Positions 2,027 to 45,431 of a stretch of DNA of 64,000 nt are shown one piece after another. The stretch is from an uncultured Planctomycetales bacterium. Its GTDB lineage: Bacteria > Omnitrophota > Gorgyraeia > Gygaellales > Profunditerraquicolaceae. The notes under the pieces were generated by a model. It searched no databases, was not told where the DNA came from, and saw only the letters and a program-made list of their open reading frames with translations. Position numbers and translations under genes: made by a program. How positions within the stretch are numbered: the stretch's first letter is position 1; every line of letters begins with the position of its first letter. The stretch spans positions 157,884 through 221,883 of the forward strand of contig CAYRUB010000001.1 of the NCBI GenBank assembly GCA_964427405.1, read 5' to 3'.

Positions 2027-2539
2027 TTACTCACTTTTCCCTACCTGTGTTTTTTCCAAAATTTCAATACGGCCTTGAATATCCTCAAGCTGCTTTTTTA
2101 TAACATCCGCCTGCTTTTTTAAGATATCCGCCTCTTGTTTTGGAGTCACTTCTGGCGCATAAAGATACTCCCCGCCAAACGCAGGCATCCCTATCGTAGC
2201 TCTTTGCCATCCAGGAAGTCCAGTAGCGTAAAACCAATTTCTCCTGCCTCTACCACCTCCGCGGCCAAAGAATCCTCTACCCATACCAACATAACCTCTG
2301 CCAAAAATCGGATTCATATAACCGGGAGCATTGTATCCAGCGCAAAAACCCGCTGATCTTCCAGTCGTCGGGCCTAAACCCATAGGTCCAGTTCCATCTC
2401 CTCTAGGCATATCAAACACCCCCTTTCCTGTATTATTAATTTCCATATTATTAGAATCTAATTTCACGATACAATAACCCATACCGCGTCCTGTCATTAA
2501 TCCTTGTCCTCTCGGACCCCTTCCATCAAACCCAGGCAT
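2027..2539 (-). CDS. DUF5320 family Gly/Arg-rich protein with C-terminal coiled coil
   Basis: N-terminal MPGFDGRGPRGQGLMTGRGMGYC and repeated GRG motifs. This family commonly co-occurs with NifX-like/ferredoxin genes. Confidence 0.6.
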   Translation of the reverse strand: MPGFDGRGPRGQGLMTGRGMGYCIVKLDSNNMEINNTGKGVFDMPRGDGTGPMGLGPTTGRSAGFCAGYNAPGYMNPIFGRGYVGMGRGFFGRGGGRGRRNWFYATGLPGWQRATIGMPAFGGEYLYAPEVTPKQEADILKKQADVIKKQLEDIQGRIEILEKTQVGKSE

Positions 2540-2559
2540 AGCCGTTACCTCCTTTATTC

Positions 2560-2578
2560 TTAATGAAAATCATTTCCA
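2560..2578 (-). promoter_or_regulatory. Fur-box-like inverted repeat upstream of DUF5320 operon
   Basis: TTAATGAAAATCATTTCCA, with AATGA..TCATT arms, sits immediately upstream of the RBS. A near-identical site lies upstream of fur. Confidence 0.4.
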
Positions 2579-2602
2579 TTATTAGAGAAAAAAATATAGC
2601 GG

Positions 2603-3076
2603 TTATTTCTTTCCCCTACATTTGTCACATAAACCGTAGAATTGAATAAGATGATTGGTGATTTTAAAGTTATATTTCTGCCCCAATCCCTTTTCTGTCT
2701 GATTAAGCAGCTCAACTTCCTCATCAATAAAATCAGTATAGTCAATCACCTTATTACATTGCGTACATACCAAGTGATGGTGATGATGCGTTCCTTTAGG
2801 GCCTTCGGCAAATTCATATCGTGCCCGGCCATCTCCAAAATCAAGCTTATAGACCATGCCGAGGTTTGATAATACATCCAACGTCCGGTAAACAGTAGTC
2901 AGTCCTACGCTGGGATACTTTGGATGGAGCTTCATATATATATCTTCGGCGCTCAAGTGGCCTTCGGTTTTAGACATAATATCGAGGATGGCATCCCTGC
3001 CAACAGTAAGCCTATACCCACAGCCTCTGAATTTTCCGTGCCACCACCCCTGTCCTCTACATTCGCCTCTTGGCAT
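2603..3076 (-). CDS. fur: Fur family transcriptional regulator (Fur/Zur/PerR)
   Basis: 157 aa. DNA-binding helix RDAILDIM...SAEDIY, GLTTVYRTL, HHHHHLVCTQC and C-terminal CDKC metal sites. Confidence 0.8.
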   Translation of the reverse strand: MPRGECRGQGWWHGKFRGCGYRLTVGRDAILDIMSKTEGHLSAEDIYMKLHPKYPSVGLTTVYRTLDVLSNLGMVYKLDFGDGRARYEFAEGPKGTHHHHHLVCTQCNKVIDYTDFIDEEVELLNQTEKGLGQKYNFKITNHLIQFYGLCDKCRGKK

Positions 3077-3084
3077 ATATCTCC

Positions 3085-3103
3085 TTAATGAAAATGATTT
3101 CCA
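3085..3103 (-). promoter_or_regulatory. Fur-box-like autoregulatory site in the fur promoter
   Basis: TTAATGAAAATGATTTCCA lies between a TTGACA-17-TATATT promoter (about 3110-3136) and the fur RBS. It is a 19-mer almost identical to the one at 2560-2578. Confidence 0.45.
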
Positions 3104-3150
3104 GTTTCAAATATACACTATACTGCTATTCTTGTCAAGCTTTTTCTTAT

Positions 3151-3492
3151 CTAATGTTCGCTTGGCAGTATTAAGACGCCATTTTCGAACCATAGATCAA
3201 TCTTATTTATCGGAAAATCCGTCCACTCAATCTTCTCCCGATAGAGCTCATGGTAATTGCCGTCCTCGCACACCAGGACTGCCGATCTATCCTCATTGAC
3301 CTCAAGCTTCCAGGTGCCGAATTCCTGTAAGTTCTTTTTCGCTCTTGTCGTGAGTAGTATCTTATCAATTAGCCAATATGCGCCGCCCACTTGCGCGACG
3401 TATTGAACCCCATCGGTGTAAAGATATCCGCTTAGATGTTTGTACCAATGCTCTGTGCCGCTAAATTGCCTTAATTCATTTACCGTTAACAT
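3151..3492 (-). CDS. DUF6876-like protein (plasmid leading-region-type small protein)
   Basis: Start at MLTVNELRQFSGTEHWY..., which has an AAGGAGGG RBS and the TEHWY/LYTDGV/GAYWL pattern recalled for DUF6876. The ORF-track N-terminal extension is rejected. Confidence 0.4.
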   Translation of the reverse strand: MLTVNELRQFSGTEHWYKHLSGYLYTDGVQYVAQVGGAYWLIDKILLTTRAKKNLQEFGTWKLEVNEDRSAVLVCEDGNYHELYREKIEWTDFPINKIDLWFENGVLILPSEH

Positions 3493-3704
3493 TTTAAACC
3501 CTCCTTGGTAATACAGGAAAAATAGCAGTTCCTGCAATCGTTATTATTTTCACTTGAGCATTTCTCACAAATAGGATCTTTGTCCATAGAAGCTATAGAT
3601 CGTAGCAACAGCTTCTCAACCACCACAGTCATTGGCCTTCCCTGTGCCTGCTTTAACCTATAAAGTGTCTTAATCATTGTTTCGCTTAATATTGGGCTAT
3701 ACAT
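3486..3704 (-). CDS. hypothetical small Cys-rich protein
   Basis: 72 aa, GGAGG RBS, CxxC...CxxC pairs (CEKC, CRNC). Tightly packed with flanking small genes. Confidence 0.3.
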   Translation of the reverse strand: MYSPILSETMIKTLYRLKQAQGRPMTVVVEKLLLRSIASMDKDPICEKCSSENNNDCRNCYFSCITKEGLKC

Positions 3705-3826
3705 TCTTGCCTCGCCTCCTCTGGTTTGCCTGCAACCTCAACCCATAACACGCCATCAATTACCACCCAATCCTGGATTTCGCTCCAGCTTGTTTCCTTC
3801 GTTAATTTGTCCTTTTGTATCCACAT
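3686..3826 (-). CDS. hypothetical 46-aa protein
   Basis: ATG at 3826 preceded by an AGGAGG RBS (MWIQKDKLTKETSWSEIQDWVVIDG...). Below the ORF-track size cutoff. Overlaps the start of the neighbouring gene. Confidence 0.2.
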   Translation of the reverse strand: MWIQKDKLTKETSWSEIQDWVVIDGVLWVEVAGKPEEARQECIAQY

Positions 3827-3839
3827 TTTTCTATTCCTC

Positions 3840-4043
3840 CTATTCTTCGTTAGGAAACATCATCGTAATGACGCCTCCATCGTTTACTACCCAAACCTCT
3901 ACTCCGGCAAACCAGAAAACCTGTAAACTAAGCAGGCTTGGATCATGTTCTTTTCTTGCGTCAACCTGCTGCCAGATTCGTTCAATCTGACCCATGGTTA
4001 ACCTTTCCGATACTTGATCTGTAATCTTTTTGATTTCCTGCAT
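3840..4043 (-). CDS. hypothetical protein (translationally coupled, TAATG overlap)
   Basis: 67 aa. Its ATG overlaps the stop of the upstream gene. GGGAGGTGA RBS. Confidence 0.35.
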   Translation of the reverse strand: MQEIKKITDQVSERLTMGQIERIWQQVDARKEHDPSLLSLQVFWFAGVEVWVVNDGGVITMMFPNEE

Positions 4044-4336
4044 TAGAAATCACCTCCCTCATCAAGCAAATCCTGATGCTTCTCAACAAAAGATTCTAAA
4101 GTTTCAGAACCATTTGGTTTAAAGCCTTTAGCCATAAGTTTATAAACGTTCTTCATTAGATTTCTTTCTTCCCAGAGAGCGGATAAGCCGAATGCCTGCT
4201 CCGGAAGATCCTCTTGATACGTTCTGTATTGAGAATCTCGGCTGCTTTGATACCTTTCCATACAGGCATCCGCGCGTAAGACCCCATCCTCAAATTTTTC
4301 GTTTTTCTTTAGTATTTCTTTTTTTACTTGGCTCAT
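4043..4336 (-). CDS. hypothetical protein, first gene behind leader copy 1 (starts MSQVK)
   Basis: Start at 4336 is fixed by conservation of GGAGG-N5-ATGAGCCAAGTAAAA with the copy at 8158. The upstream part of the 172-aa ORF-track entry is leader, not coding. Confidence 0.45.
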   Translation of the reverse strand: MSQVKKEILKKNEKFEDGVLRADACMERYQSSRDSQYRTYQEDLPEQAFGLSALWEERNLMKNVYKLMAKGFKPNGSETLESFVEKHQDLLDEGGDF

Positions 4337-4700
4337 GTGAGCCTCCTTTCTTTTGACGCCTAAAAATCCAAGCCCAATGATTTGAAGTGATTTCTGAGGC
4401 AAACCACAGAAATCACGGTCTTTTGTCAAGAAAACAGGTAAGCCCGAAAGGAGCGAGCGATAAGCGAGAGAGTTTCCTGGAGTCCTTGAGAAAAATTGAG
4501 ACTCCCCGAAGGGGCAGAATGCTTCTGATACCTTGCATCTTGAGGCAGACCACAAGTGCAAGGTAGAGATGAATTATTCTCAAGGATTTTCTTGCACAAA
4601 AGTCAATCTTGGGCTATTTTTACGGCGGAGAAGAAGAAAGAGGCGTAACTTGAAGACAAAGAAAAACAGAAAAGAAAATTTGAGGATGGAGAGAAAAGCG
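4337..4700 (-). promoter_or_regulatory. structured ~360-nt leader element, copy 1 (novel; RNA leader or ssDNA-promoter-like)
   Basis: About 80% identical to 8159-8525. Hairpins at 4387-4416 and 4529-4565 have stems that differ from copy 2 but stay perfectly paired, with a conserved loop TGG(T/G)(T/C)TGCCT. The 5' segment (about 4634-4643) is complementary to the RBS (4342-4354). Confidence 0.5.
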
Positions 4701-4754
4701 CGGAACCGTGGAAAGGCTGGAATTCTTAGCTATCCGCTCTCTGAAACGCTGCCT

Positions 4755-4949
4755 TTATTTGGGCTGATTTAAAATTTTCTTATTTTCAAACCCCTTTGCC
4801 CGGTATTCGATTATGTGGTAATGAATTGAGCCTTCTGCATCAACGTATCCAAGCGTTATATCAGCCATTTTGATATCGCTGTCCAAAGTCAAGTCATCGA
4901 AGTTTTTAATCTGCCTGTGTAATTCCCTGAACCAGTTATCGACTTTCAT
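4755..4949 (-). CDS. hypothetical protein
   Basis: 64-aa ORF with an AAAGGACGGG RBS. Lies between leader copy 1 and IR-L. Confidence 0.3.
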   Translation of the reverse strand: MKVDNWFRELHRQIKNFDDLTLDSDIKMADITLGYVDAEGSIHYHIIEYRAKGFENKKILNQPK

Positions 4950-4990
4950 ATTTCCCGTCCTTTCTTTTAATTAACTTCTTAAAATTATCT

Positions 4991-5136
4991 ATTACCCCCA
5001 AGCACTTAAAGCTCACGGCGGGCGGTGGCCTACGAGGCGCCTTTTTCAACAACCCTCTCGAAGGCTACCGCACGCCAGTCCCAATCAAAATCCACCAAAC
5101 CACCCAACCAACAAAACCCTTTAATCAGGGCGGGGC
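4991..5136. repeat. 146-bp perfect inverted repeat, left copy (IR-L)
   Basis: Base-for-base reverse complement of 39534-39679. About 55% GC in a ~40% GC context. Ends 19 bp from the JAB gene stop. Confidence 0.9.
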
Positions 5137-5155
5137 GAATTTAGCTAAACTATAC

Positions 5156-5962
5156 TTAGCTTCCGGCTGGTATTTGCAGGCGTCCTTTCTCTTCCGGGTA
5201 ATTCTTGACGTATTTTGCTATTTTTTCGCAGGAAGAACATATATCAGCTCCATTGCAGACTTCGCAAAAAGGAAGCACTCCCTGGATATTTAAGCCAGCA
5301 GTTTGCTTGCAGGTCTTACATTTGAAAGTTTCACACGCCTGACAAGCCAAATACGGCATACCCATGTGAGGACAATTTTCACAATCAGCTGTTTGGCAAA
5401 ATTCACAGGGATTTTCCTCATCTTCAAATTGTGAAGATGCCTCCGGCAATAGCTCTCTTGTTCTTTCGCTTATCTTTGAAAGATCAATCCCGGGCAGTTC
5501 AATTAATTGAAGCTGAATTTTTATATAGCCAAAACCATTACAGGGGAGTTTTATCCTTTTCGTGGCAATGCTGCCTTTTGCATTAGCGATGACGATGCTA
5601 TAAGTATAGAGATTTCTGGCATGGGCGTCGTCTTGCGATGAATGGAACGCCCCCATATCATGGTGCGAATGGATTATCCCGTCTCCTCCTAATTCCTCTT
5701 TGAATTCGCAGTCAACTGAACCTACTTCCTGCTTTGGGATCTTGAAGCTGGTTATGGTGTTATCTTTCACCCAGAATACCGCGCCCCACTCCTTATCCCC
5801 CATGCGCTGGCTGATATAAGTCCATTGACTCCAGATACTCCAGGGTATATTTAGGGTTTCTTTATGGTCATGGTCGCTGCAAAAGCCGCATTCACCGTAA
5901 TTCTTTATCTTTACATCTAAAATATTGCTTCTCTTTTCTGTAGCTTGCTCTAAAGTAAACAT
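5156..5962 (-). CDS. JAB/JAMM (MPN+) metallopeptidase with C-terminal multi-CxxC zinc ribbons
   Basis: HSHHDMGAFHSSQDD matches the JAMM motif HxHx7Sx2D exactly. The tail carries more than 6 CxxC pairs (CEFC, CENC, CQAC, CKTC, CEVC, CSSC). Confidence 0.8.
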   Translation of the reverse strand: MFTLEQATEKRSNILDVKIKNYGECGFCSDHDHKETLNIPWSIWSQWTYISQRMGDKEWGAVFWVKDNTITSFKIPKQEVGSVDCEFKEELGGDGIIHSHHDMGAFHSSQDDAHARNLYTYSIVIANAKGSIATKRIKLPCNGFGYIKIQLQLIELPGIDLSKISERTRELLPEASSQFEDEENPCEFCQTADCENCPHMGMPYLACQACETFKCKTCKQTAGLNIQGVLPFCEVCNGADICSSCEKIAKYVKNYPEEKGRLQIPAGS

Positions 5963-5963
5963 T

Positions 5964-6890
5964 TTATTTCCCTCCTTTCGCTTTTAGCCATTTTTTAAGG
6001 GCTTCCAACAGTTTTGAATCGGTGATTTCTCCTGTTTCAATCTCACAAATTATCCAGTCATATTCATTATTCTTTGCTTTTTCTTTTATATCTTTTATCT
6101 CATCATCGCTGTAATGTTCATCACAATCAGGGCAGTATCCGTAATCAGAGCCGTCAGGATCAATCCTTGAGCAGTCTTCACAGTAACCATAACTGTCAGG
6201 TATGTGTTCTTCGATGTTATCCAGGATGTTTCCTTCGCCTTCGTTTCTTGCGTCATCTAGGATTTTGGGGCAGATATGAGTTGAGTGCTGGATATGAAGT
6301 TTTCCCAGATCATCCATAAGGCAAAGTTCCTTGTATGCCCTTGAGGATATTCCTGCCGCAGCTGCAAGCACTGCCGGTATTACCCAGGAAGGCGTTACTG
6401 TATAACCCTGTTCTTCTTCTGCATCCTTCAAGGAAAGCGGGAATGTCTTTGAGACATTCAAGATTGTACCGTCATAGCCTATTCTCTGGTAGTTAAGATC
6501 ATTCTTCTTGCAGAAAGCACATATTATCTGCTGGCTTTTTAAATTATCCGTGCAGCAGAATATGTCGCCTCGCAAAATCTGGCAGTCTATTGGCTTTTCA
6601 ATACGTGAATCCTGAATCTCAATCCTTATTCCTTTTCTCACCTGGCAGATGAGTTCTTTCAAGGCTTCCGCTTTCTTTTTGCCGACAGCTTTTTCTTCTA
6701 AGAGAAGCCTGTTCAAGTTGGATACTTCAACTATGTCAGAATCAATTAAAATCAACTCTTCTACTCCTGACATAGCAAGAAGAAGCGCAGTCCAGAAGCC
6801 TGTCCCGCCACAACCGACAATTGAGGCGATTTGCGGAATATTTAAACCTTCTACTAAGTTCTGTCTTTCGTAAATAGCAAGTTCTGGCAT
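5964..6890 (-). CDS. ThiF/MoeB-type E1-like adenylyltransferase
   Basis: IVGCGGTGFWTALLLAMSGVEELILIDSDIVEVSNLNRL is the Rossmann/adenylation motif. C-terminal CEDC...CPDC zinc site. No rhodanese domain. Confidence 0.85.
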   Translation of the reverse strand: MPELAIYERQNLVEGLNIPQIASIVGCGGTGFWTALLLAMSGVEELILIDSDIVEVSNLNRLLLEEKAVGKKKAEALKELICQVRKGIRIEIQDSRIEKPIDCQILRGDIFCCTDNLKSQQIICAFCKKNDLNYQRIGYDGTILNVSKTFPLSLKDAEEEQGYTVTPSWVIPAVLAAAAGISSRAYKELCLMDDLGKLHIQHSTHICPKILDDARNEGEGNILDNIEEHIPDSYGYCEDCSRIDPDGSDYGYCPDCDEHYSDDEIKDIKEKAKNNEYDWIICEIETGEITDSKLLEALKKWLKAKGGK

Positions 6891-6902
6891 ATTTCTTCTC
6901 TC

Positions 6903-7499
6903 CTATATGATTGACTCAATTAAACCCTCATCGCTTAATTCTTTGAATTTGCACAACACATCTTTGTCTTTATTTGACAAAATGTTCCAAAGAGTTGAGT
7001 ATGTCTTAGGCAGGATCACAGTACCCAAAGATTCAAGGTTTATAACCCGGAACGACTTGATTATTTTTAGACAGGCTTCCTTTAAAAGCCCTAAGGATTC
7101 AGGATTAAGGTATTGGATTTCACCGGTGCAGATGGTGTGCCCCTTATCGGTCAATCCAAGATAGTGAAAACCTATCTCCGGTTCTGATACAAAAGCTATA
7201 AAGCAGCCTCTCTGGTCATAGATGCCGTAAATCTTAAAGGGATAGTATTTGATAGGCGTCTTTAGAAAATAGGTTTTATCCTTATAATAAAGCTTGTCTA
7301 TAAGCAGGAGGCCAGAATAGCCCTCTATAAGCATATCGTCTTCCTTTATCATGCAGCTATAGCCTCCGGTAAAGGGAACCGTAAAGATGCCTTCCTTCAG
7401 GCCTTGGACAAATTCCCGCCAAGAGGTATCAATTTTTTCGATAAGGGTTGATTTCTTTTTAGCTTTAACGATCAATTCTGTATCCATCATTGCTTTCAA
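6903..7499 (-). CDS. putative E2-like (UBC-fold) protein
   Basis: 198 aa between the Ubl and E1 genes. HYLGLTDKGHTICTGE resembles the E2 H-x-N...G-x-I-C active-site region. AAAGGAG RBS. The assignment rests on motif and position only. Confidence 0.35.
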   Translation of the reverse strand: MKAMMDTELIVKAKKKSTLIEKIDTSWREFVQGLKEGIFTVPFTGGYSCMIKEDDMLIEGYSGLLLIDKLYYKDKTYFLKTPIKYYPFKIYGIYDQRGCFIAFVSEPEIGFHYLGLTDKGHTICTGEIQYLNPESLGLLKEACLKIIKSFRVINLESLGTVILPKTYSTLWNILSNKDKDVLCKFKELSDEGLIESII

Positions 7500-7560
7500 G
7501 CTCCTTTAAGCTTTAAGAGAGGGAGAAAAAGTTTCTCTCCCTCTCTTTTTAGCTTTTTTT

Positions 7561-7797
7561 CTAGCCGCCTGCTTTGACGTATCTTTCCACTTCGATATCG
7601 TGGCCGTCAAAGGTCGCAGGCAGGTTGTCGGTAGAGGTAACCTCTTCGCCGTCTACCAAGATGGTAAAGGAGTCAATGCCTTTTTCCTGCAAGAGGCGGG
7701 TTAAGGTGTCCTTTACGGCATCGCCCTTTTTTACCTCGAGCTCTTCTCCTGCTATTGTTATCTTTGTCTTTTCGTTTTTCAGTTCGTTTAAGTTCAT
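7561..7797 (-). CDS. ThiS/MoaD-like ubiquitin-like beta-grasp protein ending in Gly-Gly
   Basis: 78 aa. ...ILVDGEEV...FDGHDIEVERYVKAGG* has the typical ThiS/Ubl core and a C-terminal diglycine immediately before the stop. Confidence 0.7.
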   Translation of the reverse strand: MNLNELKNEKTKITIAGEELEVKKGDAVKDTLTRLLQEKGIDSFTILVDGEEVTSTDNLPATFDGHDIEVERYVKAGG

Positions 7798-7855
7798 TTT
7801 GTTCTGTCTTTCTCCCCGTATAGCCGATAGGACAGCTTTTAATTTTTAAATTCTT

Positions 7856-8158
7856 TTAAGCCTGGTAGGCTGCAAGAACCACTTCTTGCAATTCATTTTT
7901 TGCCTCAGGCGTTAAGAATTGGACGGTATCGTAATACTTACCGTCGCCAGCTAAATGGGATGGCATAGCTGCGAACAGCCCGCCCTCTTTTTTAGCCATG
8001 ACCCTGATGCCTTTGATTAAAACCGCGTCAGCGACTTTAATGTCAACAAAGGCCTTCAGGGAGCTTTCGTCTTTTTCGACTTTATAAACTCTGGCCACTT
8101 CAATCATGGTTTTCACCTCCTTTCGATTTGTTTTTTGTTTTGTTTTTACTTGGCTCAT
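7856..8158 (-). CDS. SpoVG-like protein, first gene behind leader copy 2 (starts MSQVK)
   Basis: IRVMAKKEGGLFAAMPSHLAGDGKYYDTVQF resembles the SpoVG core (IRVIDG..GLFVAMPS..DG..RDI..P). The N-terminal 17 aa are an extension that begins with the leader-encoded MSQVK. Confidence 0.55.
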   Translation of the reverse strand: MSQVKTKQKTNRKEVKTMIEVARVYKVEKDESSLKAFVDIKVADAVLIKGIRVMAKKEGGLFAAMPSHLAGDGKYYDTVQFLTPEAKNELQEVVLAAYQA

Positions 8159-8525
8159 GTAAGCCTCCTTTCTTTTGACGCCGGAAATTAAAACCCAAGA
8201 ATATGAAGTATTTTTCCAGGCAGCCCAGAAAAATACGGTCTTTTGTCAAGAAAACATGGAATGCCCGAAGGCAAACGACGCAAGGAGTGAACCTTCCTGG
8301 GAGTCCTTTGGAAAAATTGAGACTCCCCTATAGGGGCAGAATGCTTCTGATAGCTAAAAAGCCTTTCCGAGGCAGACCACGAAAAGGCTTTTTAGATAGA
8401 GATGAATCTTCCCAAAGGATTTTCTTGAAAAAAGTCAGGATTGGGTTATTGTAGGCGGATAAAAAGAAAGGAGGATTACGTGACGACAAGAGAAAACAAA
8501 AGACAAGGAAGGAAGTAACTGATTG
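8159..8525 (-). promoter_or_regulatory. structured ~370-nt leader element, copy 2 (novel)
   Basis: Hairpins at 8208-8236 (GTATTTTTC/GAAAAATAC) and 8356-8393 (AAAAAGCCTTT/AAAGGCTTTTT) carry the conserved TGGNNTGCCT loops. The 5' segment 8462-8474 AAAAAGAAAGGAGG region is complementary to the RBS region 8164-8182. A CCCC-TATA-GGGG hairpin plus T-run lies mid-element. Confidence 0.5.
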
Positions 8526-8712
8526 AAGTAGCGATTAAGGGTAGCTAAAAGATAAAACGGACTGTGAAATTTTTCTTAGCTGAATTAGAAGACCGAAAAA
8601 TATATATATTCTGGGTAGCTGAAATTGAAAGGAAGACATCACCTTGAAAGTTGAAACGATTGAAGAGTTTGTTAAAGCACCAAAGGTAAGACCTGCCGAC
8701 TTACGGATCTAC

Positions 8713-9366
8713 TTATCCTTGAAATTGACTCTGCTTGTACTCAGACTGGAAATATATTAATGGGACTATCCGCATAGCTTCAAGGATCTTTGGTCCGTGG
8801 CATTTTTTAAGCCTTTTTCCCGAATTGCATGGGCATATCTTATCTCGACTATATTCTCCAGAGGCTAATATTTTAAGAAATTTCTGAGCAGCAGTAAAAT
8901 CATTGGTATTAAAGAACTCACAATAAAATTCTATAACCCCTCGTCCATAATGTGAGCGCTCACCAAACGGCATATGGCCTGTTTTTTTATTGAAACAAAA
9001 GGAGAAAAGAAACGGAATCACTAAAAACTCAACAAATCCAATAAGGGTTTTACATTTACTGAATTTTATCCAATTATCTACTGGCGTGCCTAAACATAAT
9101 GTATCGTTTGTGTAATGATGAAAATCGCTCGGTATCCTTCCCCCCATTTCTTTAACTGAGGGCATCAGATCTGGGTAGCTAGACGGGATCGCGATGAATA
9201 ACTCAAAACCATCTTGGATTCTTACTTTTTCGAATTCGGAAGAAAAACCCAGGAAACCAAAAATATAATAATTATCATCGATATGCTTAAGGCTCAAACC
9301 TGTATATTTCTCATGAAGTTCTTGAAATTGTTTCTGAATAATATCGTCATAACCAATACTCGCCAT
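8713..9366 (-). CDS. E2-like protein with C-terminal SEC-C zinc motif (CBASS Cap2-short-like)
   Basis: Start at MASIGYDD (9366), overlapping the CD-NTase stop by about 20 nt. FHHYTNDTLCLG resembles the UBC HPN...C active site. The C-terminal CPCNSGKRLKKCHG is a SEC-C motif. Confidence 0.45.
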   Translation of the reverse strand: MASIGYDDIIQKQFQELHEKYTGLSLKHIDDNYYIFGFLGFSSEFEKVRIQDGFELFIAIPSSYPDLMPSVKEMGGRIPSDFHHYTNDTLCLGTPVDNWIKFSKCKTLIGFVEFLVIPFLFSFCFNKKTGHMPFGERSHYGRGVIEFYCEFFNTNDFTAAQKFLKILASGEYSRDKICPCNSGKRLKKCHGPKILEAMRIVPLIYFQSEYKQSQFQG

Positions 9367-10546
9367 TGCTGCTCCATGGTTTCGAAGGACTAATTTTAAC
9401 CTCAGGGTAAGATTGCGCAGAAGGCGTTTTCTGGTTACTAGTTCTATAGCCACATTTCTCGAGGACCTTCCCCATGGTTTTAATACCGAATATAACACCC
9501 AGGTACTCAATCATATCCTTAGTTGATGTTTTTGTTAGAGCCTCCTGCAAGTCTTTTTTAATCTTTTTCAACCAATCATAAAAGCTTTTCTCAAGCACAG
9601 GATCATCTAACCATTTATCTGCAAAGTTTTCATCTGGTTCAACAGGATTTCTTATAACTGTTTTAGTCCCATTTTTTTCGATATGTTTATCCATATTATC
9701 TACTATACGTATTAATGCATCAGCTAACCCTAATTCATTTTGATACGCGTGCGCCGCCAAGGTGGTTATAATCATCGAAGTCGGCTTGATCTTAAAATCT
9801 TTTTCGAACATAATATCACGGTGCCGCTTAAGAAGCTGAATAGTTTTCTGTAAGGGAGTTCTAACTTTGTAAACAGGAACGGCTTCTATTGAAGCATATA
9901 AGCGCTTTTCAAGAAGAGATATAGCCCCTTTCTCAAAAATGGTTCTCATTCTAAACTTGAACCATTCTGCATACCCCTTAGGATTAGTTTTTAACCAATT
10001 ATCGTCAATACGATCATAATTACCCAATGTATTATCGGTAAGACAAATACTTGTCTGCAGTAAATTCTCCCTTATTCCTGATTCAAGCAAATGTTTTTTG
10101 TAGGGCACATCTTGCTCTGGAATAGAAGCTAAAAAATCCATATGGAAATGAACATCATCTTCATATTCAATTCTCCAGCAACGTCTTTTATTCTCGGGCT
10201 TACTCTTCATATTTTTAGCAAGAGAGTAATCAGTTAACTCCTTACCGATTTTTTCCTTTAAGTCTTTTTGTGAAATCTCATTTTTAAGATAATTTAAACA
10301 ACATACCAAGTCAATATCATATCTGTCTTCTTCTGATGCAGGTCTAACTGTAGTTCCCAAAAGAAATGAACCTTGCGTATATATTTCAGGATTTCGATCT
10401 TTTAATGATGTACTCTCCTGTAACCACTTTGTTACCGATTCATATCGAAGTCTCGCTTCTTCAAATTGAGAATCGGAAATCTTTAAGGAATCCGCATATT
10501 TCTCTAATACATCATCCAATAATGTCATGCGATTATCTTGCATCAT
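9347..10546 (-). CDS. cGAS/DncV-like nucleotidyltransferase (CD-NTase) of a CBASS system
   Basis: QGSFLLGTTVRPASEEDRYDIDLV gives the GS...hDhD nucleotidyltransferase active site. A third acidic residue lies at HMDF. 399 aa. Confidence 0.8.
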   Translation of the reverse strand: MMQDNRMTLLDDVLEKYADSLKISDSQFEEARLRYESVTKWLQESTSLKDRNPEIYTQGSFLLGTTVRPASEEDRYDIDLVCCLNYLKNEISQKDLKEKIGKELTDYSLAKNMKSKPENKRRCWRIEYEDDVHFHMDFLASIPEQDVPYKKHLLESGIRENLLQTSICLTDNTLGNYDRIDDNWLKTNPKGYAEWFKFRMRTIFEKGAISLLEKRLYASIEAVPVYKVRTPLQKTIQLLKRHRDIMFEKDFKIKPTSMIITTLAAHAYQNELGLADALIRIVDNMDKHIEKNGTKTVIRNPVEPDENFADKWLDDPVLEKSFYDWLKKIKKDLQEALTKTSTKDMIEYLGVIFGIKTMGKVLEKCGYRTSNQKTPSAQSYPEVKISPSKPWSSNGEYWL

Positions 10547-10547
10547 T

Positions 10548-11483
10548 CTAACCTCCTGTGTTATAATCCAAGAATTCTTGGATTTTTTGTGAATTATTTG
10601 TAAAATCTTTTTCTGCTAAAAAGACTAAGTTATTGTACTCATTAGGATCATCTAACTTTAAAGGTTTAGCTGATTTAAAATTAATTCTTAATACCTGATT
10701 TTCCTCAAATAAAAGCTTAAGCATGTTGGTAGTTGTTTGAGACTGCAAGCTAAGAAGCATACCAATAAATTTTTGTCGACCCCACCTTGCCAAGAATCCC
10801 CATCCTAAGAACTTTTTCCACCATCGGTCTGACTGCGAATAGAAATTTTCCCCTTCGCCTGTGCCAATTGACAAAATCATTAGATTATTTATATTCTGAC
10901 CAAGACGACGCTTAGCTTCAATAGCCGCAATAAGAGCCGGATTATTTGCCCATAATCCTCCATCTGCTAAAAGAAAATTATCCATATAATAAGGATCAAA
11001 ATAGGTAGGGGCGGAACAAGAAGCCAATACTGCTTTATAGACTAGTCTATTAGGATCACGAGAAAAATTTTTATCGTACGAAGATTTAAACACATGAACG
11101 CAGCCATTCCCGATATCAGATGCAGGCAAAACTAAAGGTATGTCAATTTGGCCTAGCTTTCGATCATCACCATAGAGATTTCTTAAGATGTTTTCTAAAT
11201 CCTTATTATCATATCTGCTCACGAATAATCCAAACCAATGAAGAAATCGCTTCTTGAAGATCCGTTGACCATATTCCTTATAAAAATCTAATACTTTACT
11301 CGCAGTAAAGTTACAAGCTAATGATGCCGCGATGATTGCTCCTGTACTAGTTCCGGCTATTAGATTAAAACTTTTTAACCAATCAACACTATATTCTTCC
11401 TCAATGCGTTTTAATATATAAGCTGCATAAACACCACGATAACCACCACCGTCGATTGCTAAAATTTTAAATATTTTATCCAT
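10548..11483 (-). CDS. patatin-like phospholipase (CapV-type CBASS effector)
   Basis: DGGGYRG oxyanion motif, GTSTG nucleophile elbow and DGG catalytic Asp. Sits directly upstream of, and 2 nt from, the CD-NTase. Confidence 0.85.
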   Translation of the reverse strand: MDKIFKILAIDGGGYRGVYAAYILKRIEEEYSVDWLKSFNLIAGTSTGAIIAASLACNFTASKVLDFYKEYGQRIFKKRFLHWFGLFVSRYDNKDLENILRNLYGDDRKLGQIDIPLVLPASDIGNGCVHVFKSSYDKNFSRDPNRLVYKAVLASCSAPTYFDPYYMDNFLLADGGLWANNPALIAAIEAKRRLGQNINNLMILSIGTGEGENFYSQSDRWWKKFLGWGFLARWGRQKFIGMLLSLQSQTTTNMLKLLFEENQVLRINFKSAKPLKLDDPNEYNNLVFLAEKDFTNNSQKIQEFLDYNTGG

Positions 11484-11558: not shown

Positions 11559-12551
11559 TTATTCGTACCTTATTTCTGTCCCCCGCAAGGTACCGTCCGT
11601 TGTTATAATAATATGATCATCTCCTGAGGTTTTTTCAGAAGATTTATTTTGGTCGTCTCTGTCTGTCCTATAAATATTTACACCCCTGCTTTCATATCTC
11701 TTGATTACAGTTTTGTCAGGAAGCAATGTTCCTGAGAATTTCTTATTGCCGGCACATATTATTCCATACCTAGGTGAAACAGCATCAATAAAAGCATTCG
11801 TGCTTGCACTTTCACTTCCGTAATGACCTGCCTTGAGAAATGTGCTTTTTAATTTGCCATCATATTCTTCAACCATTTCCTTCTCTACGAATTTTAGGAC
11901 ATTGGGGGAATCTTTCCTTAGCTTACCTTCAGAATCACCAACAAGCAAAAAGCTTACCTCGCCATATCTAAGCCATATCACTATTGATGAATTATTGGGC
12001 TTATCTGCATGCCCATCTGAATGTAATACCCTAACTTCAAATTCAGAACCCCAGTTAAGACTATCCCCTTCTTTCTTTATTAAGGTACCCACTAATGGCT
12101 TGTAGTAGTGACAATCTTTCTCTTGCTGAGCTAACTTACAAAAAGTCTTTTTGTATAATCTTGATTTTCCATTATAACCGGGATCAAGAATTGCCTTTAT
12201 TTGATACGCTTGAATAACAGGTATTAACCCTCCAACATGATCGGCATCACAATGAGTCATAATCATCAAATCTATAGGCTTGTTTTTCTTTATCCCATGA
12301 CTTTCAAGATAAGGGATAATTACTCTTTTGCCCTCTATTCCTTCGCCTCCGTCTATTAGGATTATCTCACCTTCATATTTCCCATTGCCTTTTATGCCGT
12401 CATCGGGAGTTTGAATCAAAATACAGTCACCATGGCCTACGTCTATAAACGTTACCTTAAGGGGAGTCTGGGCGTAGAGGAAAGAAGAACATAGCAGCGT
12501 GAAATAAAAAACAAAAATCTTAATTTTATGCTTTTTTATAAATATAACCAT
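11559..12551 (-). CDS. secreted metallo-beta-lactamase-fold hydrolase (ComEC C-terminal-domain-like)
   Basis: Signal peptide, DVGHGDCILI and MTHCDADHVGG MBL motifs. Confidence 0.65.
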   Translation of the reverse strand: MVIFIKKHKIKIFVFYFTLLCSSFLYAQTPLKVTFIDVGHGDCILIQTPDDGIKGNGKYEGEIILIDGGEGIEGKRVIIPYLESHGIKKNKPIDLMIMTHCDADHVGGLIPVIQAYQIKAILDPGYNGKSRLYKKTFCKLAQQEKDCHYYKPLVGTLIKKEGDSLNWGSEFEVRVLHSDGHADKPNNSSIVIWLRYGEVSFLLVGDSEGKLRKDSPNVLKFVEKEMVEEYDGKLKSTFLKAGHYGSESASTNAFIDAVSPRYGIICAGNKKFSGTLLPDKTVIKRYESRGVNIYRTDRDDQNKSSEKTSGDDHIIITTDGTLRGTEIRYE

Positions 12552-13377
12552 AGTTACATTTTGGCTTTTCTAATGGAAAACCCATTAATATGCTCACAAT
12601 CTTGAGTATCGTTCTAGGATCAAGCGTTATGCCGTCCTTTCCTGTGTGTGTAGCTCCCCCTATCTCAAGGATTTCCACCTTGCTTTTATAAAGATCAGAG
12701 TCTAAGTCTTTTTTGCTTAGTCTTGCGCTCTTCATAACCGCCTGATCCACCGTACCCATGAAACAATAAAGCTCTTTAACTCTATCCAAGAGTTTCTTTC
12801 TTATTTCAGGCTGATTTGCATACTTAATAGGCATCTGGTCAGGATCCAGGTTCACGCATTGCATTGCATGATGCGGCGAATAATCTTTGAATATAGGACC
12901 TATTTCTCCTAGCTCGCTGCCTTGATGCGGTGTTGCGACAGTAATCAAGCTGTTGATTTTCAAAAGAGGAGGAGTATCATCAATTATGGCCGCAACAGAA
13001 TCTAAACCGCCCATGCTGTGCCCTATCAAATCAAACTCCTTGCTCTTTCCTATCTTAGAGAAGATTTTACTTCGAAGAACAGGTCCGAAATCAAGGAAAC
13101 TCTTGCACCCCCCAGATTCCTCTTCAGAGAAAGTTATGTATTCGGCAGAATCGCAGTTTGTGAATATCTCTGAAAACCTTTCTTTTGCAGAAATCCCCAA
13201 TTTCTTGTCAGTGGTAGTCCACCAAGTGTTATTCTCATCAGTCCAGCCCGGTACAAAGAAAACGGGTCTTTTCAAAGTTAATTTTTCCTGCGTAAACTGC
13301 GTCAGTCTATTTAAAGCGTTCTGTTTTTGCTTTTTTCTTTCTTCTATCATTTCTTGTACTGGACCTGTGGTAGACAT
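12526..13377 (-). CDS. alpha/beta-hydrolase lipase/esterase
   Basis: VFFVPGW...GHSMGG nucleophile elbow. 283 aa. Confidence 0.6.
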   Translation of the reverse strand: MSTTGPVQEMIEERKKQKQNALNRLTQFTQEKLTLKRPVFFVPGWTDENNTWWTTTDKKLGISAKERFSEIFTNCDSAEYITFSEEESGGCKSFLDFGPVLRSKIFSKIGKSKEFDLIGHSMGGLDSVAAIIDDTPPLLKINSLITVATPHQGSELGEIGPIFKDYSPHHAMQCVNLDPDQMPIKYANQPEIRKKLLDRVKELYCFMGTVDQAVMKSARLSKKDLDSDLYKSKVEILEIGGATHTGKDGITLDPRTILKIVSILMGFPLEKPKCNYGYIYKKA

Positions 13378-13434
13378 GGAAACTCCTTTCTTTTGTTATG
13401 AAAACAACTGTTCTCAAAACAAATTGTTAAAGCT

Positions 13435-13677
13435 TTAATGCTTTTTATCTCTTGGTGGACAAGAATCGTTACCTGGAGGAACCGTATCGCTGTCTCGAAT
13501 CGGCCCCTTTGGGCTATGTATTTTTACTTCACCTCCACCACTGTTCGCCGACATCTTTTTCGCTGCTTTCTCAGCCTCTGCCTGCGTATCATAATAACCG
13601 GCAACACGATCGGACTTTTCTCGCTTTGCACGCCAGTCACCAGAATCCTTGTCTTTTGAAACGTGATAATTTGCCAT
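13435..13677 (-). CDS. DUF2188-like small protein
   Basis: MANYHVSKDKDSGDWRAKREKSDRVAGYYDTQAEAEKAAKKM has the DUF2188 pattern. Confidence 0.45.
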   Translation of the reverse strand: MANYHVSKDKDSGDWRAKREKSDRVAGYYDTQAEAEKAAKKMSANSGGGEVKIHSPKGPIRDSDTVPPGNDSCPPRDKKH

Positions 13678-13681
13678 TTAT

Positions 13682-14317
13682 TTACTCCTTCCTTAAATTA
13701 GGTATAGTTGCTATAACAACACCTTGAATCTGAAAATCATCAGTTAAAATAATTGGTTTGTTTTTTTTATTGGAAGATTTTGGCTTTAAAATAATCATAT
13801 TGGGAGCGAGGTGAAACTCTTTAATTGTCGCCTCGCCATCAATTAATGCAACAACTTTATCTCCTTCATTAGCTGTTGGCTGCTGTCTAACTAACACAAG
13901 ATCGCCTTCATTAATTCCTGCTTTATCCATCGAATCTCCTCGCGCATGCAATAGATAATATTTTGCCCCTGGCTTTGCGAGAGAAGTAGAAACAGAAATA
14001 AACCCTTCTATATTTTCTTCTGCCAACATTGGTGCCCCACAAGCTACAACGCCAACCAAAGGAATATTAATGGTTTGAGCATGCATAGAACCAAGATCTG
14101 GATTCAAAACGAGGTGATAATCTCCGTCTTCAAGCTTTTTTATCACACCTTTTTCTTGAAGTTGCTCAAGAATAACCTGAATTGACCGGGGTGATTTGTA
14201 ACCAAGATCAACCATCAATTCCCTAATAGAAGGAGCTCGAGAACGATGCATAAGCCAATTTCTAATATGACGGATAGCCTCGATTTGCCTTTTTGTAAAC
14301 GTATTTTCGTTCTTCAT
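13682..14317 (-). CDS. lexA: LexA repressor (S24 self-cleaving peptidase)
   Basis: N-terminal wHTH, VVACG cleavage-site-like motif, ARGDSM and GDLVLV...K catalytic Ser/Lys motifs. Confidence 0.85.
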   Translation of the reverse strand: MKNENTFTKRQIEAIRHIRNWLMHRSRAPSIRELMVDLGYKSPRSIQVILEQLQEKGVIKKLEDGDYHLVLNPDLGSMHAQTINIPLVGVVACGAPMLAEENIEGFISVSTSLAKPGAKYYLLHARGDSMDKAGINEGDLVLVRQQPTANEGDKVVALIDGEATIKEFHLAPNMIILKPKSSNKKNKPIILTDDFQIQGVVIATIPNLRKE

Positions 14318-14353
14318 ACATACAAGTGTATACTACCGTATGTATTTTGTCAA
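14316..14353 (-). promoter_or_regulatory. lexA promoter with overlapping inverted repeat (candidate SOS operator), leaderless start
   Basis: Minus strand TTGACA(14353-14348)-17 nt-TACACT(14330-14325), then ATG 7 nt later. ATACATAC-N14-GTATGTAT inverted repeat (14316-14345) overlaps the -10 and the start codon. Confidence 0.4.
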
Positions 14354-14667
14354 GTAAAACAAACACCCAACAGAAGCAATATCGTTTGAATTATATTTGA
14401 TAGAATTATTTAGTTTAATAAAATTCGCTTCTAGTAATGCAGACTTGGGGATAGGCGTAAATAACTATACTCTCAGTTCGCAGAAGATAAAGTCTATACT
14501 AAGCCTTACTCTTAAGACTGCTACAAACCGAACAATGATTTTGTAACCTTGCTACTTCTTCATTATAAGCTTTTCTAAATTCAGGATTCTTTAAAGACTC
14601 TTCATCGATATGCTGGCTTACTGTTTTGGGAATCATTCTTTTTCTTTTTTTAGATTGTGGTTGCATC

Positions 14668-15408
14668 TTATCCAGCAAGATTACGTTCAATCTCTGCTAT
14701 TAGTATCTTTGGAAACCCCTTTATAATCATATGCTGATTGACAGGAAGAAAGGTTTTAAGCTCTTGTCTGAAATCAATCCTCCCGGATTTGACAACCTTT
14801 AGAATCTTTGCCTTTAATTGTTTATCCTGTATAAATACTTCCTTAAAGGCCATGCGGCTACGAAGAATAAAATAAAGATCGTAGAAATCCCGCGCCTTTT
14901 GGCGCGTAAGACAGGCTTGGATTTTTTCGGTAATAAGAATCTCTTCTTTAAGATGAATAAGCGTATAGGACACAACAAGGTCGGATTGGATGAGTGCCGC
15001 TGCCCCTAACCCCTTTTTACCAGGCCGTAAAGAAACCTCTACTTGAATCCGGCTTTTATACTCACTAGTATTAAACTGGAATATAGCGAGGTATCCGCCG
15101 GATGTACTTTTTGACTCAATAATCTCAGTTTGGATACCTTCCATTTCTATCTTAGTAAGGGCTCCTTCCATTAGGGTTTCGATACCTTTGATCGTAATAT
15201 TTACTCCGGTAAAATCTAAATCTTCCGAGAACCGCGGACTCTGCCAAATGATCCGCAATGCAGTGCCTCCCTTAAAAAGCAGACTATCGGAACCCTTTTC
15301 CTGATAAAGCCGAGAAAGAAACAGCTGCTGAAAATATTCCCGCACGACATTATCTATTGTCGTCTGCCATGTTTGAGCTAACTTTTGAACTTGTCTTTTT
15401 TCAATCAT
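14668..15408 (-). CDS. AbiEii/AbiGii-family nucleotidyltransferase toxin (type IV TA), possibly C-terminally truncated
   Basis: LFKGGTALRIIW...SEDLDF motifs. At 246 aa it is short for the family. Confidence 0.7.
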   Translation of the reverse strand: MIEKRQVQKLAQTWQTTIDNVVREYFQQLFLSRLYQEKGSDSLLFKGGTALRIIWQSPRFSEDLDFTGVNITIKGIETLMEGALTKIEMEGIQTEIIESKSTSGGYLAIFQFNTSEYKSRIQVEVSLRPGKKGLGAAALIQSDLVVSYTLIHLKEEILITEKIQACLTRQKARDFYDLYFILRSRMAFKEVFIQDKQLKAKILKVVKSGRIDFRQELKTFLPVNQHMIIKGFPKILIAEIERNLAG

Positions 15409-15998: not shown

Positions 15999-16075
15999 AT
16001 GACGCTAAATGTTAAATGGGTATCTGGAGCGATTATACCTCATCTTTTGAGTTATGCAAGCCTTTTTTGGGTCAT

Positions 16076-39533: not shown

Positions 39534-39679
39534 GCCCCGCCCTGATTAAAGGGTTTTGTTGGTTGGGTGGTTTGGTGGATTTTGATTGGGACTGGCGTGC
39601 GGTAGCCTTCGAGAGGGTTGTTGAAAAAGGCGCCTCGTAGGCCACCGCCCGCCGTGAGCTTTAAGTGCTTGGGGGTAAT
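39534..39679. repeat. 146-bp perfect inverted repeat, right copy (IR-R)
   Basis: Exact reverse complement of 4991-5136. Lies 15 bp upstream of the start codon of the Replic_Relax-like gene at 39518, so the repeat is directly upstream of the tra operon. Confidence 0.9.
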
Positions 39680-39787
39680 AAACATACCTAGAAAATAATT
39701 AGCAAAATAATTAGCATACACAAAATCAATAAATTCGCATGTTGCTGCTAATTTCTTTAAAATTAATTTGCGAATTAATTTAACCAT

Positions 39788-42374: not shown

Positions 42375-42432
42375 ATTTTAATTAAAAAACCTCTTTAAGC
42401 AGATTTTTTTGGCGAGCAGCCCAGGTGCATAT

Positions 42433-42476: not shown

Positions 42477-42492
42477 TAGAAAATAAACTGCA

Positions 42493-45429: not shown

Positions 45430-45431
45430 CT

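Follow-up and report, generated by a model that had tools for sequence, protein, structure and literature searches.

Ubiquitin-like conjugation in bacteria has so far been tied to antiphage immunity, namely to type II cyclic-oligonucleotide-based antiphage signalling systems (CBASS), to Bil and probably to Bub. The stretch of DNA analysed here, called the window, comprises 64,000 nucleotides from an uncultured bacterium of the Omnitrophota lineage (assembly GCA_964427405.1, contig CAYRUB010000001.1, positions 157,884 to 221,883). It contains a cassette of five genes, which encode a SpoVG-like protein, a 78-aa beta-grasp ubiquitin-like protein (Ubl), a 195-aa E2-like protein (E2L), a 308-aa ThiF-type E1 and a JAMM peptidase (JAB). 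The module is quite probably a self-contained cassette for Ubl conjugation and deconjugation, and it very probably belongs to the conserved backbone of an F-type conjugative element family, found nearly always in Candidatus Omnitrophota.

The Bil systems (types I and II; class 6d of Iyer, Burroughs and Aravind 2006) share with this cassette separate genes for a Ubl, a carrier with a conserved Cys (an E2 in Bil, the likely E2-like protein here), an E1 and a JAB/JAMM peptidase, the lack of an E3, and a location on mobile DNA; the chemistry of the cassette is most likely Bil-like, with a Cys-dependent E2 and no E3. A preliminary description, made from the letters of the sequence alone, had matched the locus to the Bil-type and Bub/6E operons. 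The Bil identity was not upheld, since the Bil E1 has an IAD-AAD-CYS architecture (PMC11601596), whereas the E1 of the cassette is a single adenylation domain of 308 aa with no conserved crossover Cys. Likewise, the 6d E2 lacks the classical His before its Cys (PMC1779556), while E2L has a His 12 residues ahead of the Cys. The preliminary description had also set the SpoVG gene and a structured leader apart from the described systems, and both do fall outside the described Bil, Bub and CBASS operons (PMC11601596, PMC1779556). The Bil descriptions in the same papers include no SpoVG, no hairpin leader and no position in an element backbone, all of which are present here.

The five open reading frames (ORFs) were all found on the minus strand, exactly where the preliminary description had placed them, with gaps of 58, 70, 12 and 1 nt in the direction from SpoVG to JAB. 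Its operon order was confirmed for the five genes, and the shared leader that it placed at the head is real but lies outside positions 5156-8158. The set of a Ubl, an E1, a Cys-bearing E2-like protein and a JAMM peptidase was borne out, as was the location of the cassette within a mobile element. The window proteins were scanned against the Pfam, PADLOC, PHROGs and NCBIfam libraries, and neither the Ubl nor E2L matched any family in them; the matches of the E1 and JAB were generic ThiF and JAB ones.

Homologues of these two proteins form 202 (Ubl) and 165 (E2L) clusters at 90% identity, nearly all of them metagenomic, the named ones being Candidatus Omnitrophota. The cassette was found in more than 100 metagenomic contigs, and eight of the 12 loci found in species-representative genomes belong to Omnitrophota metagenome-assembled genomes (MAGs). 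Gene order was the same in every longer locus examined, and the succession Ubl, E2L, E1 and JAB was retained even where E2L identity falls to 28% (locus L022). Given these cluster numbers and this constancy of order, the arrangement is far beyond chance.

An AlphaFold2 model of the Ubl, built with 33 homologues (predicted local distance difference test score, pLDDT, 82), showed the beta-beta-alpha-beta-beta-beta order of a beta-grasp domain. Of the 50 best PDB matches given by Foldseek, nearly all were beta-grasp proteins, headed by ubiquitin, SUMO, ISG15 and NEDD8 (probability 0.9-0.98, TM score ~0.5, E-value ~0.03-0.2), with ThiS and MoaD lower down. The preliminary description gave KAGG as the C-terminus, which is correct for the window but is not a trait of the family: many homologues end in RYVKAG, many in KAGC, and a distant member in KPGRN. 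Gly77 is conserved and followed by 0-2 residues, the GG ending being particular to the window, and the mature end is probably ...RYVKAG. With its modelled beta-grasp fold and a C-terminal Gly that is exposed or can be exposed, the protein is, as far as the model goes, a ubiquitin-like modifier. Because a single conserved Gly is followed by 0-2 residues, trimming would be required, presumably by JAB.

The E2L ORF was called as 198 aa (6903-7499), but it is given here as 195 aa because its homologues start at the fourth codon (ATG at 7490). An exhaustive profile search returned just 94 clusters at 50% identity. In an alignment of 53 sequences, with identities down to 17%, only His109 and Cys121 are invariant, with the constant spacing His-x11-Cys; Gly107 and Gly123 are near-invariant, giving the motif G-x-H ... 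[IL]-C-[TLV]-G. The structural model (pLDDT 72) has a helix (residues 15-32), a four-strand meander (46-103), a loop and then further helices, with the loop that holds the His and the Cys (108-126) modelled at low confidence. This is the order of elements in UBC/RWD folds. Members of the UBC/E2 superfamily are recognised by a helix, a four-strand meander, an active-site loop and helices, with the Cys ~7-12 residues after a conserved His.

The Foldseek and profile comparisons proposed in the preliminary description for the 198-aa candidate gave no meaningful PDB match with the E2L model and insignificant profile scores. Profiles searched against PDB sequences returned only noise, and a Pfam scan of the 53 diverse relatives returned nothing consistent. 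Comparison with four eukaryotic E2s, using approximate query sequences, gave an insignificant probability of 1.4%, and comparison (hhalign) with the family of the CBASS E2 encoded in the window an equally insignificant 0.8%. In the latter, the sole aligned stretch placed GFH...ICTG of E2L over DFH...LCLG, the active-site motif of the CBASS protein. Since the order of the fold and the His/Cys pair fit while the structural and profile comparisons are insignificant, E2L is considered a likely, but not proven, E2-like protein; the earlier E2-like label therefore stands weakly at the level of the fold and through the invariant Cys, but it has no significant sequence support.

Longer relatives of E2L were considered as possible Ubl-E2 fusions of the Bub type I kind, but their N-terminal extensions were SH3-like or Cys-rich by eye and not Ubl-like. 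Searches with E2L (tblastn) against PLSDB plasmids and INPHARED phages found no match, and none was found in IMG/VR.

In the E1, the Pfam ThiF domain covers residues 24-132 only. In the PDB, the proteins closest to it in sequence are PaaA, ThiF, TcdA, MccB and Uba1 (active adenylation domain); its match to BubCD is weak (6e-5), and among PADLOC models the Rossmann region scored best with the Cap2 "E1-E2" models (8.6e-16). The Cys residues conserved among 14 orthologues lie in the FCCTD nucleotide/Mg motif, in a CA dipeptide and in a C-terminal C-x2-C...C-x2-C cluster. Opposite the crossover loop of ThiF, the alignment shows no conserved Cys but an invariant GYxTPSW. The C-terminus of the window E1 (5964-5990), ...LKAKGGK, resembles the Ubl tail ...VKAGG; the likeness is probably a coincidence because it is not conserved in the family.

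The character of the E1, nearest to ThiF, MoeB and PaaA-type adenylyltransferases and lacking a catalytic-cysteine domain, would also suit a sulfur-carrier or small-molecule system (CysO/Mec+, QbsE/QbsD, ThiS/ThiF), in which the Ubl is thiocarboxylated and the JAMM peptidase removes a C-terminal residue or adduct. The Gly-Cys terminus of many Ubl homologues is reminiscent of the CysO-Cys adduct and of the tail of QbsE. However, the curated NCBIfam ThiF/MoeB models score far under their cutoff with this E1 (69 vs 159 bits), and no rhodanese, CysM, ThiG, MoaE or other biosynthetic partner occurs in the conserved neighbourhoods. The cassette includes an additional conserved partner with an invariant His-Cys pair in a UBC/RWD-like scaffold and is always found in mobile-element backbones. 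A biosynthetic role, which the preliminary description had named as the outcome that would overturn its interpretation, is very improbable.

The JAB protein carries the exact HxHx7Sx2D motif as HSHHDMGAFHSSQDD, together with the upstream conserved Glu of KEWGA, as expected for JAMM/MPN+ peptidases (E...HxHx7Sx2D), and its Prok-JAB score (28.9 bits) exceeds the cutoff of 25. The preliminary description had reported both this motif and a multi-CxxC extension. Six CxxC pairs were indeed found after the JAMM motif, in the C-terminal third, but it is the N-terminal 165 residues that are conserved in the family, while the Zn-ribbon-rich tail varies. The JAMM motif is retained in the JAB of the distant locus L022, the match to PRTRC_A is sub-threshold (2.3e-4), and no match was found by tblastn on PLSDB plasmids.

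In the proposed mechanism, the JAMM peptidase would trim the 0-2 residues that lie beyond the conserved C-terminal Gly of the Ubl, and the minimal ThiF-type E1 would adenylate Gly77. From the adenylate the Ubl would pass straight to Cys121 of E2L, possibly without an E1 thioester and with the assistance of His109; direct passage is probable because the E1 has no conserved crossover-loop Cys. E2L would then transfer the Ubl to lysines of target proteins, and the JAMM peptidase could undo the mark. The co-expressed SpoVG-like protein, a nucleic-acid-binding protein, may serve as an adaptor, a target or a regulator.

With the NCBIfam model, the SpoVG-like protein scored 7.5e-13, below the cutoff. 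Its conserved core begins at Met18 (ATG at 8107), which has its own Shine-Dalgarno sequence (SD), AAGGAGGTGA. The first 17 codons (MSQVKTK...) correspond to a leader ORF that is shared with a 97-aa gene (orf97) and is fused in frame in the window; some elements, L014 among them, encode it as a peptide of its own (27 aa), with SpoVG beginning at Met18 after a strong SD. SpoVG was found in three positions: as the first gene (the window, L001, L011 and others), after JAB and DUF2958 (L003, L006), and directly after JAB (L019). SpoVG homologues are rare on PLSDB plasmids, and none was found on a conjugative plasmid.

The cassette lies at one end of a conjugative element. The region from 17532 to 41158 encodes an F-type conjugation system (TraE, TraL, TraK-like, TrbI/TraB, TraC, TraU, TraH, TraG_N and a TraD-like coupling protein) and type IV pilus genes (secretin, T2SSE and T2SSF). 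In L011, L017 and L018, homologues of the window genes at 17.5-25.5 kb occur in the same order and end, after TraH, 0.3-2.8 kb before the cassette. The block leader-SpoVG-Ubl-E2L-E1-JAB, followed by a 147-bp element, orf64, a second leader, orf97, orf67, orf72 and a DUF6876 gene, is syntenic in L001, L011, L013, L015 and L017. Downstream of DUF6876 the neighbours diverge (Fur and others in the window, HTH_17 and others in L001). Since the same features follow the cassette in every longer relative before the neighbours differ, the cassette was placed at one end of the element, as backbone and not as cargo.

Because the transfer genes directly precede the cassette in L011, L017 and L018, the window segment from 8.7 to 17.4 kb was interpreted as a cargo insertion. 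It includes a short type II CBASS (8713-11483) just upstream of the cassette. The preliminary description had placed the module next to CBASS, which is true of the window, but CBASS is missing in L011, L017 and L018, and the neighbouring system is incidental cargo. The idea that the E2-only CBASS uses the E1 and JAB of the cassette was rejected because the linkage is not conserved.

The surroundings also bear on the possibility that the cassette is antiphage cargo of the Bil type, in which, upon infection, the E2-like enzyme would put the Ubl on a phage structural protein and the JAMM peptidase would mature and recycle it. The four Bil activities, Ubl, E2, E1 and JAB, are all present as separate genes (PMC11601596; row 6d of PMC1779556). 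Defence cargo lies directly beside the cassette, be it CBASS (window) or restriction-modification (L001), and defence systems are often carried by mobile elements. Against this, PADLOC, which the preliminary description had proposed as a check, gave no match for the Ubl, E2L or JAB, and the place and neighbours of the cassette are constant while the adjacent defence genes change or vanish. The degree of conservation is similar to that of the transfer genes (identities of 68-97% for the Ubl and 78-93% for TraH), and the leader is common to a second operon of small backbone genes. Distant copies occur among runs of small same-strand ORFs in mobile elements and not in chromosomal defence islands, and neither CapW/BrxR nor CapH with CapP, the regulators named by the Bub paper (PMC11601596), was present among the neighbours scanned. 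A Bil-type defence role is accordingly considered unlikely.

The leader is a long-range hairpin present in two copies in the window, copy B before the SpoVG operon and copy A before the second operon. A pattern scan of metagenomes gave 109 contigs, and nhmmer on these together with the MAG loci gave 165 copies, with the next gene always being SpoVG (58) or orf97 (63). Five helices join the 5' and 3' arms, one of them between CCUCUUUCUUUU and the SD AAAAGAAAGGAGG; in copy B, CCUCCUUUCUUUU is paired with the same SD, and the pairing reaches the first ATG. Across 14 copies, 97% of cells are paired and 24 of 86 pairs show compensatory changes, while none of 500 shuffles was as good and slid controls were at most 60% paired. 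Several pairs split near evenly among 110 unique copies (for example, GC 50 and AT 50). The interior hairpins also covary, and two or three of them display the same loop, TGGYYTGCCT. As their stems covary freely while the loop is constant, a sequence-specific factor that binds the loop on single-stranded DNA (ssDNA) or RNA is suggested.

Hairpins with this conserved loop and freely covarying stems were located at 8208-8236, 8340-8400, 4430-4460 and 4530-4575. The MSQVK... start codons of SpoVG (8107-8158) and of orf97 (4290-4336) belong to the repeated leader, and the MSQVK sequence may be a leader peptide.

As DNA, copy B folds with -71 kcal/mol (z -8.4) and copy A with -68.7 kcal/mol, and no other 300-nt stretch of the 64 kb forms a DNA fold as stable as those of the two leaders. 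Both strands fold far better than shuffles, and neither the DNA fold energies of the strands (-71.0 vs -66.9 kcal/mol) nor the wobble counts decide between them. Neither the leader nor the 147-bp element matched any Rfam family, at gathering or E-value threshold.

The plus (template) strand of the gene-distal arm carries TTG(C)AC and, 17 nt on, TATTGT; in copy B the promoter scan gave TTGAAA-16-TATTGT at 8425-8452. Among the 110 unique copies, TTG and T-A-T-T-n-T are 95-100% conserved, and of the 85 copies in which the plus-strand motif was located, 79 have a 17-nt spacer. All 110 copies have TTGACA in the opposite arm, the sequence paired with it being variable. The -10 sits in an internal loop, and the stem goes on for ~25 bp beyond it, over the SD and ATG. 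The folded template strand would thus mimic a downstream promoter duplex, with a start ~20-25 nt before the ATG. The promoter scan found no sigma-70-like site on the coding strand from 4000 to 8800, and the plus strand offers no gene for a template-strand promoter to serve, the longest ORF upstream of copy A having 28 aa and nothing being present upstream of copy B. Several hairpin promoters before successive same-strand operons form the pattern of plasmid leading regions, and the published ssDNA promoters are inactive as duplex DNA (PMC11541004; PMC12672017). From these sequence features, an even case can be made that the leader is a Frpo-like ssDNA promoter.

Between the JAB gene and orf64 lies a conserved element of 147 bp, of which a second, identical copy was found in inverted orientation directly upstream of a mobC-like gene and the coupling-protein gene, a site at which an oriT would be expected. 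The two copies are exact reverse complements 34 kb apart, and the element is kept at 79-88% identity, in the same place, in eight other loci. It includes a terminator-like hairpin (5116-5131) just after the JAB gene, and an inverted repeat (GCGTGCGGT...ACCGCCCGC) followed ten bases on by TAAGTGC. This heptamer is the 5' half of the consensus NWACCNNTAAGTGCGCCCTYNN of MOBQ origins of transfer (oriT) (PMC3832669), and the element is regarded as a candidate oriT. With MOBQ polarity, the second copy would direct transfer of the plus strand, which is the template strand of the cassette genes; after circularisation, TraG_N would be the first to enter, followed by the DUF6876 operon and then the Ubl operon. 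This order would fit the ssDNA-promoter reading, because the transferred strand would be the template for all of these genes.

On the single-stranded transferred DNA, the leader hairpin would rebuild a -35/-10 promoter, so that the cassette would be made at once after entry into the recipient and could serve the establishment of the element. Its most plausible function would be the tagging of recipient or element proteins as an anti-defence measure, not host defence against phage, and an anti-defence role, one option of the preliminary description, fits the element backbone and the candidate leading region better than host defence does. A role in establishment or anti-defence is possible but stays on the doubtful side. 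A more specific version, an "offensive" Ubl system fired from ssDNA promoters that disables or redirects recipient proteins such as immune effectors within minutes of entry, seems unlikely. As a whole, the best explanation would be a backbone Ubl cassette with ssDNA-promoter leaders and an early role in establishment, which is put forward tentatively.

A number of observations weigh against this explanation. The related loci were gathered by searches with the cassette itself, and its constant presence across the element family is thus conditional on them; the defence genes directly upstream (CBASS in the window, restriction-modification in L001) also fit a defence island. Scans of the window identified no relaxase or integrase, only the MobC/Replic_Relax-like protein, and att repeats were not evident, as positions 2500-3300 and 41100-45500 share no word of 11 nt or more. 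The assignment to a leading region rests on the oriT guess, because no relaxase, integrase or att sites were identified; the transferred strand was derived from a 7-nt match, and the copy of the 147-bp element in the module points the opposite way. The DNA fold of the leader, at -69 to -71 kcal/mol, is slightly too weak for the -75 kcal/mol screen of PMC12672017. The sense RNA folds with -122.6 kcal/mol (z -9.3), sequestering the SD and AUG within helix 1, and G-U pairs exceed A-C pairs in the sense orientation (389 vs 63 cells, counted in an RNA-biased fold). Many orf97-type copies have a conventional-looking candidate promoter, CTGACA-N18-CATAAT, ~95 nt upstream.

These last findings fit a 5' untranslated region (5'UTR) switch in the mRNA, in which a transcript begun upstream would fold so that its ribosome-binding site and start codon are hidden by a 5' anti-SD. 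A translational switch is equally natural for the leader, because the sense RNA folds equally well and hides the SD and AUG and because G-U pairs outnumber A-C pairs. The two or three hairpins with the same conserved loop, the terminator-like U-rich tail of the side hairpin, and the ordinary regulated-promoter layout of L006-type cassettes, which follow a divergent HTH_3 repressor gene, are also in keeping with a switch. The structure could be opened or closed by translation of the MSQVK ORF or by a factor that binds the loop (UGGYYUGCCU), perhaps the SpoVG-like protein itself, and the cassette would then be an autoregulated donor-side module, for example for control of transfer competence or protein turnover. 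On the other hand, no Rfam family matched, the two window copies have no sigma-70-like site on the coding strand, and no plus-strand gene exists for an opposite-strand promoter. On the opposite strand, the unpaired TACAATA and the TTG keep both their sequence and a constant spacing of 17 nt, neither of which RNA pairing needs. A switch of this kind has a substantial likelihood, though one below even. The features concerned are located in Table 1.

Table 1. Positions of the cassette, its leaders and associated features in the window.
Feature	Position	Strand	Evidence or remark
SpoVG-like protein	7856..8158	-	Pfam SpoVG 1.2e-17
Ubl, 78 aa, one beta-grasp domain, ends KAGG	7561..7797	-	AlphaFold2 model and Foldseek
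E2L (likely E2-like), 195 aa	6903..7490	-	New family; His109 and Cys121 never vary (GFH-x-[IL]C[TLV]G)
Minimal ThiF-type E1, 308 aa, one adenylation domain	5964..6890	-	Pfam ThiF 2.3e-23
JAMM/JAB metallopeptidase, 268 aa, motif HSHHDMGAFHSSQDD	5156..5962	-	Pfam Prok-JAB 1.2e-6
Leader copy B, ~340-nt long-range hairpin before the SpoVG operon	8138..8480	-	nhmmer E 5e-120
Leader copy A, before the second operon	4297..4644	-	nhmmer E 2e-116
147-bp conserved element between JAB gene and orf64	4990..5136	-	Candidate oriT/relaxosome site
147-bp element, second identical inverted copy upstream of mobC-like gene	39534..39680	+	
orf64, small conserved protein between the two operons	4755..4949	-	Syntenic in L001, L011-L013, L015, L017, L021
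Second leader-preceded operon at the element end	3151..4336	-	Syntenic in related loci
orf97	4043-4336	-	
orf67	3840-4043	-	
orf72	3486-3704	-	
DUF6876 protein	3151-3537	-	DUF6876 3e-42
TraD-like coupling protein gene	36494-38761		SXT_TraD 2.5e-29
mobC-like gene	38745-39518		MobC family replication-relaxation NF041423 7e-13; Replic_Relax 5e-5
CBASS patatin effector	10548-11483		PADLOC 2.2e-90
CBASS CD-NTase	9347-10546		PADLOC 8.6e-129
CBASS E2-only protein, SEC-C motif	8713-9510		PADLOC E2 1e-82

Other genes of the element were also inspected. The orf64 product is 61-71% identical in the syntenic loci and had no family match in the Pfam, PHROGs and NCBIfam scans. Homologues of the DUF6876 protein were found on 106 PLSDB plasmids. 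Within the conjugation region, a 394-aa protein (26987-28171) had no family match. The further cargo at 11559-17414 encodes a metallo-beta-lactamase-fold protein, a PGAP1-like alpha/beta hydrolase, DUF2188, a LexA-like S24 repressor, AbiEii with an upstream 197-aa partner, an ISNCY transposase fragment and an HTH protein. Beside the ISNCY fragment are two exact tandem copies of a 21-nt unit, CCAAAATAGAAATGTCCGGTT, with a spacing of 25 (16083-16128). The scanned genes from 44.4 kb onward are housekeeping genes, and in that part the minus strand carries a c-di-GMP-I riboswitch (56225-56304, 66 bits) and a TPP riboswitch (57355-57468, 58 bits).

Three of the distant cassettes (L003, L006 and L019) lie in other mobile-element backbones, with a tyrosine or serine recombinase, a TrwB-like ATPase and a divergent HTH_3 repressor. 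In these loci SpoVG comes after JAB, usually behind a DUF2958 gene.

The cassette would add an operon family to bacterial Ubl conjugation, its Ubl and E2L matching no family in the libraries searched. The combination of a minimal E1 without a catalytic cysteine and a Cys-bearing carrier makes it a natural case for finding out how small a Ubl relay can be, and the fixed place in the backbone, behind promoter-like hairpins, raises the question of protein tagging for establishment or against recipient immunity. If true, this would be the first "offensive" Ubl system of a bacterial mobile element and the first case of ssDNA promoters outside Proteobacteria, and it would bring both ssDNA-promoter biology and MOBQ-like oriT signatures into Candidatus Omnitrophota, a phylum in which hardly any genetics exists. 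Should the cassette prove to be ordinary phage defence, structural and biochemical studies would still gain a new and compact Ubl system. Of more interest than the adjacency to CBASS is the context, an Omnitrophota conjugative backbone with hairpin leaders and an oriT-like element.

Regarding the leader, Frpo/ssi elements of IncF/IncI leading regions are similar in being hairpins of ~300 nt found in several copies before successive same-strand operons, with the -35/-10 in an imperfect stem of the transferred strand (for the leader, the template strand, which is the candidate transferred strand) and no ordinary promoter on the coding strand. They differ in that the leader has no sequence similarity to them, comes from another host phylum and has a fold energy slightly weaker than the published screen. 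In addition, the leader has a 30-nt side hairpin between the -35 and -10 in the template arm, and its stem covers the SD and start codon. Literature searches turned up no Ubl operon described as containing SpoVG or as part of a conjugative leading region.

Among the enzymatic systems, the Bub (6E/DUF6527) operons have both Ubl-E2 and JAB-E1 fusions in type I and an E2-E1 fusion in type II, whereas all genes of the cassette are separate. They also encode the DUF6527 (BubE) serine protease, form Tyr/Ser oxyesters and have an E2 without a catalytic Cys, unlike E2L with its invariant Cys121. DUF6527 was found neither in the five proteins nor in the Pfam-scanned neighbours or the precomputed Pfam labels of the related loci. 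The Bub/6E identity given in the preliminary description was therefore abandoned, as the cassette has no DUF6527 and no fusions and does have the conserved Cys. The E1 itself resembles the small homodimeric E1s of ThiF and Bub.

Type II CBASS is similar in placing E1, E2 and JAB chemistry on mobile elements, and the FH...C.G of E2L is similar to the motif at the active site of the CBASS E2, whose gene lies 1 kb upstream. In that system, however, E1 and E2 form one fusion protein and the CD-NTase takes the part of the "Ubl", whereas the cassette has a dedicated Ubl of 78 aa and a separate E1 and E2L. The cassette is independent of CBASS, with no CD-NTase in L011, L017 and L018 and CBASS absent from most related loci.

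The PRTRC (ParB-related, ThiF-related cassette) systems of integrative and conjugative elements and plasmids also place a ThiF-like and JAB-like set in mobile-element backbones, but JAB scores 20.8 bits with PRTRC_A (cutoff 101.8) and the E1 16.4 with PRTRC_ThiF (cutoff 144.75). In the search with the PRTRC models (TIGR03735-03742), the Ubl and E2L had no match, no other PRTRC protein was matched and no adjacent ParB gene was present. CysO/Mec+ and QbsE/QbsD share a ThiS-like Ubl, a ThiF-like E1 and the removal of C-terminal residues by a JAMM peptidase, but the cassette has no sulfur-transfer or biosynthetic genes and instead has an extra E2-like enzyme with Cys and His in a mobile-element backbone context. 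On the evidence of its sequence, the cassette is set apart from Bil, Bub/6E, type II CBASS, PRTRC and the sulfur-carrier systems.

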